Positions 1,994 through 60,306 of a stretch of 64,000 nt of DNA are shown here, one piece after another; the stretch's first letter is position 1; each line of letters opens with the position of its first letter. The notes below the pieces were generated by a model. It ran no database searches and had not been told where the DNA came from. It worked only from the letters and a program-made list of their open reading frames with translations. This DNA comes from an uncultured Actinomycetota bacterium (GTDB lineage: Bacteria > Actinomycetota > Actinomycetes > Propionibacteriales > DAIQRJ01). The stretch lies in NCBI GenBank assembly GCA_963708795.1, contig CAVPUH010000006.1, positions 170,005 to 234,004 of the forward strand, in the 5' to 3' direction. Both the position numbers and the translations under genes were made by a program.

Positions 1994-3000
1994 ATGCAGC
2001 ATCGGTACGTCGGACGCACCGGGCTCCGAGTCTCCCGGCTCGGCCTGGGCACGATGGGCTGGGGGCGTGGCACCGACCAGCACGAGGCGGCCGAGCAGGT
2101 GCGCGCGTTCGTCGATGCCGGCGGCAGCCTGATCGACACGGCTGCCGGATACGCCGGCGGTGACGCCGAACGAGTCCTCGGTGTGGTCCTCGCTACGGTG
2201 TTCGGACCCGGGAGTGGTCGGCGCCGGACGCGTGACGATCTCGTCCTCGCCAGCAAGGTGGGCGTCTACCCGAGCGGCCGGGGCACGCGTCGTCGACATG
2301 TCCCGACGCGGGCTGCTGGCCCGGCTCGACGGCACCCTCGCGCATCTCGGCGTCGACCATCTCGATCTCTGGCAACTCCAGGCCTGGGGCGCACCGGTTC
2401 CGCTGGAGGAGTCGTTGTCGGCCTGCGAGCAGGCGGTGCAGAGCGGTCGGGTCCGCTACGTCGGGGTGGCACACCACACCGGCTGGCAGACCGCCTGGGC
2501 GGCGGCGGAGTTCGCGCGCGGACCCGCCGGCCCGATGGCCAGCGCGCAGGCCGAGTACTCGCTCGTCGTCCGGGACGCCGAGCAGGAGTTGCTGCCGGCG
2601 GCGGCGGCGCTGGGACTGGGCTTCTTCCCGGCCGCGCCGCTCGGGACGCGGGGTGCTGACCGGCAAGTACCGCCACAGCGACCGGAGGGGGCGATCCGGC
2701 CCGGCTGACGACGACGCGGCGCTCGCCCTGGCGGACTACCTGTCCCCACGCCGGCGCGGTGTCGTGGACGCCGTCTGCCGGGCCGCTGACGGGCTCGATC
2801 TGACCGCGGCCCAGGTCGCACTGGCCTGGGTGCGCGACCGGCCCGGCGTGACCGCGCCGATCGTGGGCGCACGGAGCGCAGCGCAACTGCGCGGGTCACT
2901 CGCCGCCGAGGGGGTGTCGCTGCCGTCGGAGATCATCAAGGCACTGGACGAGGTCAGCACCGTGGATCGGATCGAGGAACCGGAGAGGATCGGTACGTGA
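1994..3000 (+). pseudogene. aldo/keto reductase, reading frame interrupted twice (+1 at GGGG 2280-2283 and GGG 2643-2645)
   Basis: Three consecutive track ORFs (1994.., 2160.., 2653..) in frames 2,0,1 carry N-terminal, middle and C-terminal AKR sequence (MQHRYVGRTGLRVSRLGLGTMGWG / LDGTLAHLGVDHLDLWQLQAW / VLTGKYR...AQVALAWV). Deleting one G at 2643-2645 restores PLGRGVLTGKY. Confidence 0.85.
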
Positions 3001-3230: not shown

Positions 3231-3382
3231 CCCGGCCGCCGCAGCGCGGTGGCCGGCGTGACCGGCGGCCCCCCAGAGTGGTCGCAACACCCGCAACGTC
3301 GGCGGGTCGCGCGACGACACGCCCACGTCGGCTTCGGTTGGGCCGGGGCCGAGGCCGGGGGCCTCTGGACGACGACCAGCGC

Positions 3383-4700
3383 TCAGATCCGGTCGAGGAG
3401 CCCGTCGAGGACGCGCGTGCCGAACTGCAGCGCGTCGGTCGGCACCCGCTCGTCGATCCCGTGGAACATCGCCGAGAAGTCCAGGTCGTCCCGCAGCCGA
3501 AGCGGCGCGAACCCGAAGCAGCGGATGCCCAGATCGCCCCAGGCCTTTCCGTCCGTTCCGCCCGACATCAGGTACGGGATCACCGGAGCGCCCGGGTCTT
3601 CGGCCTGCAGGCTCGCGACCATGGCATCGACCAGGCTGCCGTCGAAGCTGGTCGACACCGCGTCGTCACCGTGGATGACCTCGAGCTCGACCTTGTCTCC
3701 CAGCAACGAATCGACGGTCGCGAAGAAGTCGTCGCGGCCACCGGGCACGTAGCGGCCGTCGATCACCGCCGTCGCCTCCCCCGGGATGACGTTCTCCTTG
3801 TACCCGGCGGCCAGGCGGGTCGGATTCGTGGTGTTGCGGAGGCTCGCAGCGATCATCCGGGAGATCGCGCCGAGCTTGCCGAGGACGGGTGCGAGATCGT
3901 CCGCATCGGGATCGAGGTCGAGGTTCAGCGCGTCCGACAGCCCGCCCAGGAACGCCGCGTGCGCTGGGTGTCAACTGGAGCGGCCACTCGTGAGCACCGA
4001 CACGGGCGACCGCGCGCGCGAGTTCGGTGACGGCGTTGTCGTCGTTGAGCATGGAACCGTGGCCGGCGCGACCCTTGGCCCGCAGGCGCATCCACGCCAG
4101 GCCCTTCTCGGCCGTCTGGACCAGGTAGATCCGGCGACCCTCGACCGTGATCGAGAAGCCGCCCACCTCACCGATGGCCTCGGTGCAGCCCTCGAGTGCG
4201 TCCCGATGGTGATCGACCAGCCAGTGCGCACCGTGCGTGCTACCGGCCTCCTCGTCGGCGGTGAACGCGAGCACGACCGGCCGGTCGGGCAGACGGTTCT
4301 CCCGGGCCCGTTGCCGGATCACCGCGAGCAGGACGGCGTCGAAGTCCTTCATGTCGACGGCCCCGCGTCCCCAGACGCAGCCGTCCGCCACCTCGCCCGA
4401 GAACGGATCGACCTGCCAGTCCGCCGCGTTCGCCGGGACGACGTCGAGGTGGCCGTGCAGCAGCAACGGCGGCTTCGTGCCGTCCGCCGGTCCGAAGGTG
4501 GCGAGCACGTTCGCCCGGCCGGGCTGGGATTCGACCAACTCGGCGGCGATCCCGACCTCGGCCAGGCTCGCCGCGACGTACTCCGCGGCCACCCGCTCCC
4601 CTGGCCCGGAATCGTCGCCGTAGTTCGAGGTGTCGATCCGGATCAGGTCGGACGCGATCCCCACGACCTCGTCGTGAGCGGTGCCGGCGCGGTCGGTCAT
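3383..4700 (-). pseudogene. M20 family dipeptidase/metallopeptidase, one +1 frame interruption near 3966-3968
   Basis: ORF 3666..4700 holds the N-terminus and catalytic domain (HGHLDVVPA, GRGAVDMKD, FTADEEAGS). ORF 3383..3856 holds the C-terminus (MSGGTDGK, FHGIDERV). The frames join at ...HEWPLQLTP/AHAAFLGGLSDAL if one base of the run is removed. Confidence 0.85.
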
Positions 4701-18148: not shown

Positions 18149-18937
18149 ATGACGCCCATGACTGCTGCGACATCGGTACTGGACGCCTTCAAACTCGACG
18201 GGAAGGTGGCGCTGGTCACCGGCTCCACCCGCGGCCTCGGACGCGCGTTCGCGCTGGCTCTCGGCCAGGCCGGCGCGAGCGTCGTGGTCGTCGGGCGCGA
18301 CGCCGCCGCTGCCGCCGAGGTCAGTTCCGAACTCGACGCAGCCGGCGTGCCGTCCCTGGTGGTGCTCGGCGACGTGACGATCCGCGCCGATGTGGAACGC
18401 ATGCTCGCCGAGAGCCTGGCCGCGTTCGGTGCCGTCGACATCCTCGTGAACAACGCCGGCACCTGCATCCATCGCCCTGCCCTCGAGGTGACCGACGAGG
18501 AGTTCGACCAGGTGATGACCGTGAACGTCGATGCACTCTGGCTGTGCAGCCAGGTGTTCGGGCGCTACATGGTCGAACGCGGTGACGGCAACATCATCAA
18601 CATCGGGTCGATCTCGGCGCTGATCGTCAACCGCCCGCAGTATCAGCCTGCGTACAACGCGTCGAAGGCGGCGGTCCACCAGCTCACGCGCAGCCTGGCT
18701 GCGGAATGGGCGCCGTTCAACGTCCGCGTCAACGCCCTCGCACCGGGCTACATGCGTACCGACATGGCCCCGGTGGACGAGCCGCGCTTCCGCCGCCAGT
18801 GGATCGACGACGCGCCGATGCAGCGGGCCGGTGAGCCGGCCGAGCTGGGCGGGGCGATCGTCTTCCTCGCGAGCGCGGCGTCGTCGTTCGTCACGGGCTC
18901 CGTCCTCGTCGCCGACGGGGGCTACACGATCTACTGA
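18149..18937 (+). CDS. SDR family oxidoreductase
   Basis: TGSTRGLGRA glycine-rich motif, NNAG, and YNASKAA catalytic Y-x3-K. Start at ATG 18149 is assumed. Confidence 0.85.
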   Translation: MTPMTAATSVLDAFKLDGKVALVTGSTRGLGRAFALALGQAGASVVVVGRDAAAAAEVSSELDAAGVPSLVVLGDVTIRADVERMLAESLAAFGAVDILVNNAGTCIHRPALEVTDEEFDQVMTVNVDALWLCSQVFGRYMVERGDGNIINIGSISALIVNRPQYQPAYNASKAAVHQLTRSLAAEWAPFNVRVNALAPGYMRTDMAPVDEPRFRRQWIDDAPMQRAGEPAELGGAIVFLASAASSFVTGSVLVADGGYTIY

Positions 18938-18959
18938 GGGCGCGGCCGGCGGGCGTCGA

Positions 18960-19295
18960 CGCCGAGTGGTCACGAACTCCCGCAGCTGCGGCGTGTCCCG
19001 TCACGACGCGCCCACTCCAGGCTCCCCAGCGACCAGGCACTCGAGGGCTCGCGTCCGAGTGGGCGCAAACTCCCCAAGATGCGGCGTGTCCCGTAATGAC
19101 GCGCCCACTCCAGGCTCCTCAGCGACCAGGCACTCGAGGGCTCGCGTCCGAGTGGGCGCGAACTCCCCAGATGCGGCGTGTCCCGCAAGGACGCGCCCAC
19201 TCCAGGCTCCCCAGCGACCAGGCCTCGAGCTCGTCCGAGTGGGCGCAAACTCCCGCAGCTGCGGCGTGTCCCGTGACGACGCCCCCACCCCGACC
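18960..19295. repeat. tandem repeat array, about 3.5 copies of an 87-93 bp unit, each with a 10-bp stem hairpin
   Basis: The anchor CCGAGTGG recurs at 18962, 19055, 19148 and 19235 (periods 93, 93, 87). For example GAGTGGGCGC 19057-19066 pairs with GCGCCCACTC 19101-19110. Sits between the convergent SDR and ABC genes. Confidence 0.9.
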
Positions 19296-19321
19296 CCGGG
19301 CGGCCGGCGCCCCTTCAGCCG

Positions 19322-21367
19322 TCAGGCGCCCGCCGGCCGACCGCCTGCGAGTGCTCCGCCGGCTTCGTCGAGATCGACGGCAGCCCCGCTGAACTGGGAC
19401 GCGTAGAGCCGCTGATAGGCGCCGCCCGCCGCCATGAGTTCGTCGTGCGTGCCCTGCTCGACGATGTCCCCGTGCTCCATCACGACGATCCGGTCGGCGT
19501 CGCGGATGGTCGAGAGCCGGTGGGCGATGACGAAGCTCGTCCGCCCCGAGCGCAGGCGCTCCATGGCCTGCTGCACCAGCGCCTCGGTTCGGGTGTCGAC
19601 CGACGACGTCGCCTCGTCCAGCACCAGGATGGCGGGGTCGGCGAGGAACGCCCGCGCGATCGTCAACAGCTGCCGCTGACCGGCGCTCACGGTCGCGCCG
19701 TCGTCATCGAGGACCGTCTCGTAGCCCTCGGGCAGGGTCCGGATGAAGTGGTCGGCGTGTGCGGCGATCGACGCCGCCAACACCTGGTCCTCCGACGCGC
19801 CGGTCGCCCCGTAGGCGATGTTCTCGCGGATCGTCCCGCCGAACAGCCACGTGTCCTGCAGCACCATCCCGAAGTCGTCGCGGAGGTCGTTGCGCCGCAT
19901 CTCCCGAATGTCGATCCCGTCGAGGCTGATGGCGCCGCTGTCCACGTCGTAGAAGCGCAGCAACAGGTTGGCCAGCGTCGTCTTGCCTGCTCCGGTGGGC
20001 CCTACGATCGCCACTGTCTGGCCCGGCTCGGCGACCAGGTCGAGGTCGCCGATCAGCGGGTTGTCCGGGTCGTAGCTGAACGAGACATGGTCGAACACGA
20101 CCCGCCCGCTGACCCGGTCGGGTGCGCGACCCGGGACCGGGTCGGGGATCTCCTCGGGTGCGTCGAGGATCTCGAAGACGCGCTCCGCCGACGCCACACC
20201 GGACTGGAGGAGGTTGGCCATCGACGCGACCTGCGTCAGCGGCTGGCTGAACTGGCGCGAGTACTGGATGAACGCCTGCACGTCGCCGAGGCTGATAGCG
20301 CCCGACGCCACCTGGAGCGCGCCGATCACCGCGACCGCCACGTAGTTCAGGTTCGACAGGAAGAACATGCCCGGCTGGATGATGCCGGAGATGAACTGCG
20401 CCTTGAAGCTGCTGTCGTAGAGCTTGTCGTTGTGGTCGGCGAACACCTCGCGCGCCTCGTGCTGGCGGCCGAACACCTTCACCAGCTCGTGGCCGGTGTA
20501 CATCTCCTCGATGTGCCCGTTGAGCTTTCCGGTGGTGGCCCACTGGTCCTTGAAGTGCGGCTGTGAGCGCTTCGCCACGGCGATCGTCAACAGCGCCGAG
20601 AGCGGGATCGTCACGAGTGCGATCACCGAGAGCAGCGGCGAGACGTACAGCATCATCCCGATCACACCGATGACCGTGAGCAGCGAGGTGAGCAGCTGGC
20701 TCATCGTCTGCTGCAGGGTCTGGCCGATGTTGTCGACGTCGTTGGTGACGCGGCTGAGGATCTCGCCTCGGGGCTGGCCGTCGAAGTACTTGAGCGGGAG
20801 TTTCTCGAACTTGGCCTCGACGTCACGGCGCATGGTCGCGACGGTGCGCTGCACGATGATCGCCGTGACCCGGCCCTGCAGCCACGCGAACACCGACGCC
20901 GCCACGTACAGCCCCAGGGCCAGCATCAGCACGTGGCTCAAAGCCGTGAAGTCGATTCCCTGCCCGGGCACGAGGCCGTTCATCGCGGCGATGATGTCGG
21001 CCTGGGAGTTCTGGCCGTTCTGCCGGAGTCCCGCGACGACCTGGTCGACGCTCGCGCCCGGCGGCAGCTGCTTGCCCACCACACCGGCGAAGATGATGTT
21101 GGTGGCATCACCGAGGACCTTCGGCCCGATCACCTGGAAGGCCACGCTGATGACGCCGAGCACGACCACGATGGTGGCCAGGAGGCCGTCCGAACGCAGC
21201 CGCCCGAGCAGTCGGGCCGAGGAGCCCTTGAAGTCGGTGGCCTTCACCGCTGGGCCGCCCATCATCCCGGCCATCGGGCCGCGCGGTGCACCACCCGGCG
21301 GCCGCACGGGTGCGGCGGGAGCCGGCGTCGCCTTGGCGTCGGTCGCCTTGCCGTCGCGCTCGCTCAT
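19322..21367 (-). CDS. ABC transporter ATP-binding protein/permease (exporter half, MdlB-like)
   Basis: 681-aa ORF with six TM-like segments, then Walker A GPTGAGKTT, signature VSAGQRQLL and Walker B ILVLDEATS. Confidence 0.9.
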   Translation of the reverse strand: MSERDGKATDAKATPAPAAPVRPPGGAPRGPMAGMMGGPAVKATDFKGSSARLLGRLRSDGLLATIVVVLGVISVAFQVIGPKVLGDATNIIFAGVVGKQLPPGASVDQVVAGLRQNGQNSQADIIAAMNGLVPGQGIDFTALSHVLMLALGLYVAASVFAWLQGRVTAIIVQRTVATMRRDVEAKFEKLPLKYFDGQPRGEILSRVTNDVDNIGQTLQQTMSQLLTSLLTVIGVIGMMLYVSPLLSVIALVTIPLSALLTIAVAKRSQPHFKDQWATTGKLNGHIEEMYTGHELVKVFGRQHEAREVFADHNDKLYDSSFKAQFISGIIQPGMFFLSNLNYVAVAVIGALQVASGAISLGDVQAFIQYSRQFSQPLTQVASMANLLQSGVASAERVFEILDAPEEIPDPVPGRAPDRVSGRVVFDHVSFSYDPDNPLIGDLDLVAEPGQTVAIVGPTGAGKTTLANLLLRFYDVDSGAISLDGIDIREMRRNDLRDDFGMVLQDTWLFGGTIRENIAYGATGASEDQVLAASIAAHADHFIRTLPEGYETVLDDDGATVSAGQRQLLTIARAFLADPAILVLDEATSSVDTRTEALVQQAMERLRSGRTSFVIAHRLSTIRDADRIVVMEHGDIVEQGTHDELMAAGGAYQRLYASQFSGAAVDLDEAGGALAGGRPAGA

Positions 21368-40843: not shown

Positions 40844-42021
40844 CTAGGCCTGCGTCCCGTCCGGGCGCACGCCGTCGTTGTCCGTCGCGTCGAGCAGTGC
40901 CTGCGCGCTCGGGTCGTTCAGCTGACCCGACATCCGCGCCGTGCTCTCGGCCTCGGCGATCGCCTGCTTCACCACCTCGTTCGCGGCTTCGAGCGCCTTC
41001 GAGTCCGGGCTCCGGCAGCTCGAGATCGGCCGGCATCGGCGGCGGGGCCTGCTCGACCGCCTGGTCCGCCGGCGGCTGCCAGCTGGGCGCGGGCGCACTC
41101 TCGGGCTTCGGCACGAGACCACCGAGCGCACCGCCGAGGCCCTCGAGTGCCTTGCCGAGCTCGCTCGGGACGATCCACAGCTTGTTCGAGTCGCCCTTGG
41201 CGATCTCCGGCAGCATCTGCAGGTACTGGTAACTCAGCAACTCGGCGTCGGGACGCCCGGCATGGATGGCCGAGAACACCGTCGAGATCGCCTGAGCCTG
41301 ACCCTGGGCCTTCAGGATCTCGGACTCCCGGCTCGCCTGCGCCCGCAGGATCATCGCCTCGCGCTCACCCTGGGCCCGCAGGATGTTGCCCTGCTTCTCA
41401 CCGTCGGCCGTGAGCACCTGCGACTGCCGCACGCCCTCGGCGTTCAGCACCGCGGCCCGCTTGTCCCGCTCGGCCCGCATCTGCTTCTCCATCGAGTCCT
41501 GGATCGACGCAGGCGGGTCGATGCCCTTCAGCTCGACGCGCTTGACCTTGATGCCCCACTTGCCCGTCGCGGCGTCGAGCTCGCTGGCCAGGGCCCCGTT
41601 GATGCGCTCGCGAGAGGTCAGCGTCGTCTCGAGCTCCATCCCGCCGATGACCTGCCGGAGCTGGGTCATGGTCAGCTGCTCGATCGCCTGCAGGTAGTTG
41701 TTCACCGCGTAGGTCGCCGAGCACCGGGTCGGTGACGATGTAGTAGATGACCGTGTCGATCGAGACCACCAGGTTGTCCTTGGTGATCACCGGCTGCGGC
41801 GGGAAGGACACGACCTGCTCGCGCATGTCGACGGTGTAGCGCACCTTGTCGATCCCCGGGATCACGAGGTGCGGGCCGGAATCGAGCGTGCGGCGGTACT
41901 TGCCCAGACGCTCGACGATCCGTACCCGCGCCTGGGGCACGAAGACGATCGCCTTGACGATGAAGATGATCACCAGCAGAGCGATGATGACCGGTACGAG
42001 CCAGGACGCGATGTCACCCAT
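40844..42021 (-). pseudogene. SPFH/Band 7 (stomatin/QmcA-like) protein, two +1 interruptions (near 41717 and GGG 41007-41009)
   Basis: N-terminus in ORF 41398..42021 (TM + VPQARVRIVERLGKY...VIYYIVTDP). Core in ORF 40803..41705 (ATYAVNNYLQAIEQLTMTQLRQVIG...). C-terminus in ORF 40844..41131 (DSKALEAANEVVKQAIAEAE...). Confidence 0.8.
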
Positions 42022-56877: not shown

Positions 56878-56917
56878 GCCGGATAAGCCTTTCGGTCGGT
56901 GCGTGCCGTTCGGTTGA

Positions 56918-56959
56918 GATGCGGTCGGTGGAGATGCGGTCGGTTGGGATGCGGTCGGT
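56918..56959. repeat. 15-bp tandem repeat x3 (GATGCGGTCGGTnnn) in the fabG-fabI intergenic spacer
   Basis: GATGCGGTCGGT occurs at 56918, 56933 and 56948. It is flanked by related TCGGTCGGTG motifs at 56892 and 56981 and by duplicated GGTGCGTG(T)GCCGTTCGG. Confidence 0.85.
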
Positions 56960-56990
56960 GCGTGTGCCGTTCGGCGCGCGTCGGTCGGTG

Positions 56991-59442: not shown

Positions 59443-60306
59443 GTGATCAGGGTGTTGCTGCGCAGGCGGACGATCCTGTTCACCCTGTTCGTGGTGTTCC
59501 TGGTCGTGACCTTCATCGAACTCTCGATGTGGCAGTGGCACCGGCACGAGTCGCGAGCCCTGCACAATTCGCTGGTCCGGGCGGCATGGTCGGCCCCGGT
59601 CGTGCCGGTGTCGACGATCCTGCCGAGCACCTCGACACCGTTGGCGGTTCCCGATGTCTGGCGGCGGGTCACCGCGCTCGGACGCTACGACACGTCGCGG
59701 CAGCTGCTCATCCGGTATCGCGCGCACGACGACGACAACGGGTTCGAGGTCCTGACGCCGCTCGTCACCGACCACGGCACGCTCTGGATCGACCGCGGGT
59801 GGATCCCGCTGGCAGGTCGAGGCGCCGACGACCTCCCCGCCGCGCCGGCACCTCCCGCCGGCAATGTGACGGTGACGGGCTACCTGCAGGGCTCCGAGAC
59901 GACCGACAAGACGGTGCTCCCGGCGACGGGACAGGTGCGCACCATCACCCTGCCGGTCATCAACTCCTGGTACGGACGGCCCGCCTACGGGGCCTACCTG
60001 CAGCGCACCACGGAGTCGCCGGCGCCGGCGACGTCGCCGACCACCCTCGCCGTCGAAGATCTGTCCGGCGGCCCGCACGTCGCCTACGCCATCCAATGGG
60101 CGCTGTTCGCCGCCATCGGCGTCGGCGGCTACCTCAAGCTGATCCGCGACGACGTCCTCGCGAGCAGGCGACCGAGCGAGGAGAAGAGCCGGCCCGGCAG
60201 CGGTCGGGACGGCAGCAGTCGGGACGGCAGCGGTCGGGATGGCGGCGGACCTCAGCCGGGTCCGAGCGGCCGGTCGTCGAGACGTCGCTCGACAGCCGAC
60301 GTGTGA
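59443..60306 (+). CDS. SURF1 family cytochrome oxidase assembly protein
   Basis: N-terminal TM + WQWHRH motif, C-terminal HVAYAIQWALFA TM. The tail carries the (GSGRD)n repeat. Confidence 0.8.
   Translation: MIRVLLRRRTILFTLFVVFLVVTFIELSMWQWHRHESRALHNSLVRAAWSAPVVPVSTILPSTSTPLAVPDVWRRVTALGRYDTSRQLLIRYRAHDDDNGFEVLTPLVTDHGTLWIDRGWIPLAGRGADDLPAAPAPPAGNVTVTGYLQGSETTDKTVLPATGQVRTITLPVINSWYGRPAYGAYLQRTTESPAPATSPTTLAVEDLSGGPHVAYAIQWALFAAIGVGGYLKLIRDDVLASRRPSEEKSRPGSGRDGSSRDGSGRDGGGPQPGPSGRSSRRRSTADV

Follow-up and report, generated by a model that had tools for sequence, protein, structure and literature searches.

The DNA analysed here, a window of 64,000 nt from the genome of an uncultured actinobacterium, carries an SDR-family oxidoreductase gene on the plus strand (18158..18937; 259 aa from the ATG at 18158; Pfam adh_short_C2, E=6.5e-63) that converges with an ABC exporter gene on the minus strand (19322..21367; ABC_membrane and ABC_tran domains). 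Their stop codons at 18937 and 19322 enclose a gap of 384 bp that is nearly filled by a tandem repeat, hereafter array A. Both the array and the almost completely occupied convergent gap had been recognised in a preliminary description of this DNA, and both are borne out: Tandem Repeats Finder places array A at 18962-19288 with a period of 93, 3.6 copies, 88% matches and a score of 500 (the runner-up tandem repeat of the 64-kb window scores 96), and arrays occupy the same site in two other assemblies. The SDR stop borders the array across a left flank of 24 nt (18938..18961), and the sequence between the last unit and the ABC stop is unique and G+C-rich. The SDR protein is identical to its closest homolog (P0001) at 257 of 259 positions, and the C-terminus of the ABC exporter is collinear with that of its relatives. 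Three other tandem repeats of the window, at 41301-41384 (period 33, 2.5 copies), 56910-56960 (period 15, 3.4 copies) and 60195-60248 (period 15, 3.6 copies), are probably peptide repeats within genes, since all of their periods are multiples of 3.

Array A is built of direct units on the plus strand that start at 18962, 19055, 19148 and 19235, exactly where the anchor sequence had been reported to recur, with a spacing of 93, 93 and 87 nt; we refer to the first ~60 nt of a unit as its head. The first unit, u1 (93 nt with head and tail, 18962..19054), has a degenerate outer 5' arm (GAGTGGTCAC), the palindrome CCGCAGCTGCGG at 18980-18991 and, at 18989-19017, the core of the head with the arms of an inner hairpin at 18990-18996 and 19006-19012. 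Unit u2 (93 nt, 19055..19147) combines a perfect 10-bp outer stem (19057-19066 / 19101-19110) with a core at 19082-19110 and inner hairpin arms at 19083-19089 and 19099-19105, and u3 (87 nt, 19148..19234), which has three small deletions amounting to 6 nt in all, contains an 11-bp outer stem (19150-19160 / 19192-19202) and a core at 19174-19202. The last unit, u4, is a head only (19235..19295), with a degenerate 3' arm (GCCCCCACC), the palindrome at 19253-19264 and a core at 19262-19290. Full units are 90-93% identical among themselves and the partial u4 is 83-85% identical to the others, close to the 85-95% estimated by eye, and the palindrome had rightly been assigned to the two outer copies, u1 and u4. 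The perfect outer stem GAGTGGGCGC/GCGCCCACTC is found in the window in u2 and u3 only, so that the earlier claim of a 10-bp perfect stem in each full unit fails at the 5' arm of u1.

The array as a whole is bracketed by a perfect 13-nt inverted repeat made of G and C only, CGGCCGGCGGGCG (18943-18955, in the left flank of the gap) and CGCCCGCCGGCCG (19327-19339), the right arm of which lies inside the last codons at the 3' end of the ABC gene. The flanks of the gap pair with each other when the whole gap is folded, and this inverted repeat, which has no clear equivalent in relatives, might be an older hairpin that was split by array A.

Array A is non-coding, as indicated by a G+C content that is flat over codon positions in all six frames (0.67-0.75; the flanking genes have a GC2 of 0.44-0.48 and a GC3 of 0.89-0.93) and by head-to-head spacings in other strains (79, 79, 90 and 85 nt; 83, 92 and 93 nt) that are not all multiples of 3. 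The ORFs that cross it have no credible Pfam match, with Ribosomal_S19 at E=0.003 as the single sub-threshold one, and keep no frame, in agreement with the initial view that they merely translate the repeat. We found no promoter-like site on either strand of the array A region and no stem-plus-T-run terminator-like site on either strand between 18500 and 19800. Rfam reported nothing overlapping array A at E<=10, and for a second array of the same family described below (array B) it gave two sub-threshold matches at chance level only (TYMV_upPK, 18.8 bits versus a gathering score of 38). Compared with shuffled sequences, folding is unremarkable both for the whole gap (plus strand, z = -2.6; minus strand, z = -1.2) and for single units (z between -2.4 and +1.2). 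A role as terminator is therefore unsupported for array A: no positive evidence emerged for the bidirectional terminator that had been proposed, given the lack of a U-tract on either strand, the unremarkable folding and the gaps of just 12-43 bp with which relatives make do at this junction.

These relatives are four genus-level ones known from metagenomes, with SDR proteins 87-89% identical and DNA 75-82% identical to the window. Their gene order is that of the window (Fpg, SDR, then two ABC genes on the opposite strand), and the SDR/ABC gap measures 19 nt in L001, 43 nt in L002, 20 nt in L004 and 12 nt in L005, in each case without the element; L003, a second contig with the same SDR protein as L002, likewise has a gap of 43 nt. 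Alignments of the relatives to the window end at 18937-18941 and restart at 19328-19367, so that array A has no counterpart there and constitutes a lineage-specific insertion. It had been considered beforehand that the repeat unit might turn out to be part of a conserved protein-coding gene in relatives, and these lack the sequence altogether.

Conspecific contigs were found through the 90% cluster of the closest SDR protein, members of which lie on long ENA contigs, and two of them were compared, L009 (ERZ25039594, a 441-kb contig) and L010 (ERZ25039464, a 76-kb contig), each with ~96% DNA identity to the window over ~20 kb; exact look-ups of the SDR and ABC products of the window, and of the protein P0243 from an 821-kb contig, gave no match. 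The SDR/ABC gap of 384 nt in the window (period 93, 3.6 copies, 4 heads) corresponds to 450 nt in L009 (period 85, 4.7 copies, 5 heads) and to 382 nt in L010 (period 92, 2.6 copies, 4 heads). Between the window and L010 the first two units match by position; later units are mosaic between strains, with differing combinations of 5'-arm, palindrome and loop variants, and the segments between heads vary between strains in length (~19-38 nt) and sequence. Mosaic units together with a differing number of heads are the pattern expected of unit gain, loss and conversion, and the presence of same-site arrays in two independent other assemblies rules out an assembly artefact. Array A is thus a true variable-number locus between conspecific assemblies, with 4, 4 and 5 heads, as had been ventured from the window by itself. 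We also found a short-read contig of 1072 nt with a 99%-identical SDR gene that ends 235 nt after the stop codon, and no gene is called in this last stretch; judged from gene calls rather than from DNA, this is consistent with an assembler break inside array A.

Strain-to-strain alignments open a gap every 150-300 nt, and both the window and the ENA contigs have the appearance of error-prone long-read assemblies rich in indels. Two genes of the window, one for an aldo/keto reductase (1994-3000) and one for an M20 peptidase (3383-4700), are each split over overlapping ORFs in different frames, and both genes are intact in another conspecific contig, L011 (334 aa and 438 aa), which suggests that the splits are long-read indel errors or possibly pseudogenes. 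In assemblies so prone to indels, the single-base deletions of u3 and exact unit lengths are unreliable and head counts are robust; the small indels of u3 may be sequencing errors.

Heads are present beyond array A. An nhmmer profile of the four window units detected one more significant stretch of the window, 3276-3334 (E=1.6e-4, against E=4 for the runner-up), and this match covers the head only. This single diverged head (3272..3334, plus strand, core at 3300-3328; 43.9 bits with a family profile that includes this copy) occupies the gap in which a DUF5703 gene (stop 3230) converges with the M20 peptidase gene (stop 3383); the two gene products have their closest named homologues in Nocardioidaceae and Propionibacteriaceae at ~60-65% identity. 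The single head is shared by the conspecific contigs L011 and L012, and the DUF5703/M20 gap measures 155-164 nt in these two contigs and 152-164 nt in the species; in L013, the sole relative recovered for this gap (DUF5703 protein 85% identical), it measures 33 nt and contains no element. Array B, the second array of heads, is found ~3.5 kb outside the window on its left side, where an FGGY kinase gene converges with a gene of 291 aa. It has a period of 89-93 nt and the head variant CGACTGGTCGAGAACTCACCTCCACCCGGCGTGTCCCGTGACAACACGCCCACTCC, and comprises 4 heads in L011 (3232-3557, period 90) and 3 heads in L012 (3301-3546, period 92). Array B heads carry CACCTCC where array A heads have CTCCCGC (L011 3231-3560); the former heptamer is identical to the anti-Shine-Dalgarno end of 16S rRNA, and the likeness is probably a coincidence.

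The ~71 kb of the species examined thus hold three head loci, all of them in convergent gaps and all on the same strand, and two of the three are arrays of similar period whose copy number varies between strains. Asked whether the unit is dispersed or variable in copy number, as the preliminary description had put it, the answer is both, with at least two further intergenic loci and 3-5 heads per array. Neither a covariance model nor nhmmer profiles revealed further head copies in the window or in relatives. The best-scoring additional candidate, in a relative (L004, 15426-15466; 24.7 bits), overlaps the C-terminus of a SpoU methylase gene and was judged to be a chance match.

We aligned all 23 heads from the three loci (window and conspecific contigs) as one family. 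The most conserved part of the head is a 29-nt core, CGGCGTGTCCCGTGACRACRCGCCCACTC, which is 86-90% identical between loci, whereas the 5' half reaches 56-64% (Fisher p = 0.02, arrays A versus B). The core contains the inner hairpin, 7 bp of GGCGUGU / ACRCGCC with a loop of 9-10 nt, which is paired in 98.8% of cells over the 23 copies and present in most minimum-free-energy folds; its arms are near-invariant, so that pairing is inseparable from sequence conservation. Its sole variable pair is U-G in 14 copies and U-A in 8. The outer stem is paired in 79% of cells over the same copies, with a central G-C pair in 4/23 and one pair broken in 7/7 array B heads. Neither the outer stem nor the inner hairpin shows compensatory changes or covariation across the 23 heads, and the folding and covariance checks that had been suggested for the unit gave the outer stem no support, the z-scores being unremarkable as well. 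The tails of arrays A and B have no significant similarity (shuffle p = 0.02-0.35).

Outside the species, a 24-base pattern of the core had no exact match in GTDB species genomes or JGI metagenome contigs; because these collections also lack the window's own sequence, absence of the core there is weak evidence. Relaxed patterns returned three matches (L006-L008) in which similarity ends at the pattern. One of them, on a JGI contig (L007, Ga0066710_100247921, 1244-1272), keeps 27/28 of the core and sits where the 3' ends of convergent GH3 glycosidase and RidA/L-PSP ORFs overlap; judged by sequence, this could be chance or possibly a distant family member in another organism. A pattern scan of viral contigs gave no match, and neither did BLAST against plasmids or E. 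coli genomes, the latter disposing of a suspected 11-nt resemblance to the E. coli REP. The ~71 kb of the species examined yielded no transposase or other mobilising enzyme. A 10-nt direct repeat around the array, GCGGCCGGCG (18942-18951 and 19300-19309), was considered as a target-site duplication and rejected, as it is gone in L009 and degraded in L010; the empty sites of relatives are too diverged to align, and no target-site duplication or element boundary is definable.

We are fairly confident that array A is an interspersed minisatellite of the kind known from MIRUs and REP clusters. A ~60-nt head with a conserved hairpin core occupies convergent 3' gaps in the lineage of this species; at both gaps that can be compared (SDR/ABC and DUF5703/M20), relatives have 12-43 bp only. 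At the SDR/ABC gap, the head would then have been reiterated head-to-tail together with ~25-38 nt of adjacent sequence, with array growth likely to have proceeded by replication slippage or unequal recombination between units, and turnover is ongoing, strains at present having 4 or 5 heads and mosaic units. Head-to-tail amplification with neighbouring sequence has affected two of the three loci. The head itself is most likely carried along almost neutrally in the 3' untranslated regions of its neighbouring genes, and convergent 3' gaps would be where insertion is least harmful. If transcripts are affected at all, it would be through the conserved inner hairpin and not through the outer stem. 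Against such a minisatellite stands the likeness in period of two arrays (85-93 nt and 89-93 nt) whose tails are unrelated, which purely local duplication does not explain, and a core so strongly conserved points to a constraint of some kind, whether from mobilisation or from the host, that fits poorly with pure neutrality.

The heads could instead be undescribed non-autonomous mobile elements for which arrays of ~90-nt period are intrinsic to a strand-specific mechanism of mobilisation, a tentative proposal that we regard as improbable. An enzyme would in this case recognise the hairpin core, as in the HUH/Y1 systems (IS200/IS605, RAYT-REPIN). That mobilisation would be strand-specific follows from the single orientation shared by all 23 copies at the three loci, and the similar period of two arrays with unrelated tails would then reflect mechanism, not coincidence.

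A distinctly improbable explanation, to our minds, is that the heads are functional RNA elements, either terminators without a U-tract or stabilisers of 3' ends, which have been selected at convergent junctions, with an array that insulates the SDR and ABC transcripts from each other redundantly and in both directions. The placement of 3/3 loci between convergent genes would agree with this, as would a core more conserved than the remainder of the head and an inner hairpin kept in 98.8% of cells whose variable pair, U-G or U-A, pairs in both forms on the plus strand. On the minus strand, however, the U-G pairs turn into C-A mismatches, so that a symmetrical bidirectional role is not favoured; a terminator of the stem-plus-T-run kind is found on neither strand, the folding z-scores (-2.6 to +1.2) are unremarkable and neither helix shows compensatory base changes. 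Copy number moreover varies freely between strains, and relatives manage with gaps of 12-43 bp and no element.

Such free variation, and the existence of relatives without the element, weigh equally on the idea that the 29-nt core is a binding site on double-stranded DNA for a host protein such as gyrase or a nucleoid protein, with arrays that relieve transcription-driven supercoiling at convergent junctions. BIME arrays of E. coli have been reported to bind gyrase or nucleoid protein, and the analogy would suit a family in which sequence is conserved rather than any demonstrable structure, spacing is a regular ~85-93 nt at two independent loci and every locus sits at a convergent junction; with no known protein partner and no E. 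coli REP/BIME similarity found, we consider it very improbable. Next to negligible is the chance that array A is an artefact of assembly or part of a coding gene with a 31-residue repeat. It is true that the periods of the window's units (93, 93 and 87) are divisible by 3, that long ORFs run across them and that other genes of the window have frameshift-like breaks, but same-site arrays exist in three independent assemblies from different samples, the 1072-nt short-read contig continues for 235 nt beyond the SDR stop with no gene called, and the relatives are without the sequence altogether. Nor do the flat codon-position G+C, the want of a credible Pfam match for the crossing ORFs or the unit lengths of other strains, which are not all multiples of 3, speak for a protein.

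As two variable-number loci within ~25 kb, arrays A and B offer strain-typing markers for an uncultured soil actinobacterial species, and array A explains likely breaks of short-read assemblies at the SDR/ABC site. For MIRU/REP-like elements in general, the family adds one more case outside the well-studied genera; a new biological question would arise only if the core were recognised by a mobilising enzyme or worked as an RNA element.

Among known systems, CRISPR arrays share with array A a regular spacing of direct repeats and a palindrome inside the repeat, but here the units abut and the inter-head segments are homologous (90%+ in the window; also within L009 and L010). Since the segments between heads are themselves repeated and not unique spacers, array A is not a CRISPR, as had been stated at the outset, and no cas gene adjoins it among the flanking genes. 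Terminator-like dispersed repeats offer another parallel, one of them being the TRIT motif of M. tuberculosis. Pneumococcal SPRITE is likewise named among repeats of this type (PMC3184786). Repeats of the SPRITE/TRIT type resemble the heads as dispersed conserved hairpins at gene 3' ends and differ from them in that the present hairpin has no T/U tract and shows no evidence of termination.

REP and BIME elements of Proteobacteria are similar in being short hairpin elements 3' of genes that prefer convergent or co-directional gaps, and the ~60-nt head falls within the 21-65 bp length range of REPs (PMC3184786). REP/BIME clusters, too, reiterate an element in tandem together with flanking DNA (PMC3733652). 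REPs are however marked by a conserved terminal GTAG or CGTC tetranucleotide by the stem (PMC3733652), a tag that the heads do not conserve: GTAG/CTAC occurs in 0 heads, and CGTC/GACG in some copies only, being lost from most array B heads. BIMEs and REPINs typically alternate in orientation whereas all present copies are direct, no RAYT transposase was identified in the ~71 kb examined here, and there is no sequence similarity to the E. coli elements.

MIRUs are units of 40-100 bp with ~40-50 copies per genome that are missing from the homologous region of related species (PMC3184786). The MIRU-VNTR loci of Mycobacterium tuberculosis have in common with the present family head-to-tail units of 40-100 bp at several intergenic loci of a high-G+C actinobacterium, a copy number that varies between strains, absence at the corresponding site of related species and internal G+C-rich inverted repeats (PMC3184786). 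They belong to a host of a different order from the present one, which is probably a member of the Propionibacteriales, and they lie between co-directional operon genes with short ORFs overlapping the flanking genes, whereas our heads lie in convergent gaps and keep no frame; on this ground, which is one of description and not of sequence, the heads are set apart from MIRUs proper. The head family thus belongs to neither MIRU nor REP, matches no described family and is specific to the present species. It shares the general traits of the MIRU-like class, with a period of 85-93, three loci in ~71 kb and strain-variable head counts, and the initial assignment of array A to a MIRU/VNTR-like or REP-like class stands on its copy-number variation and on the dispersal of the head to at least two other intergenic loci.
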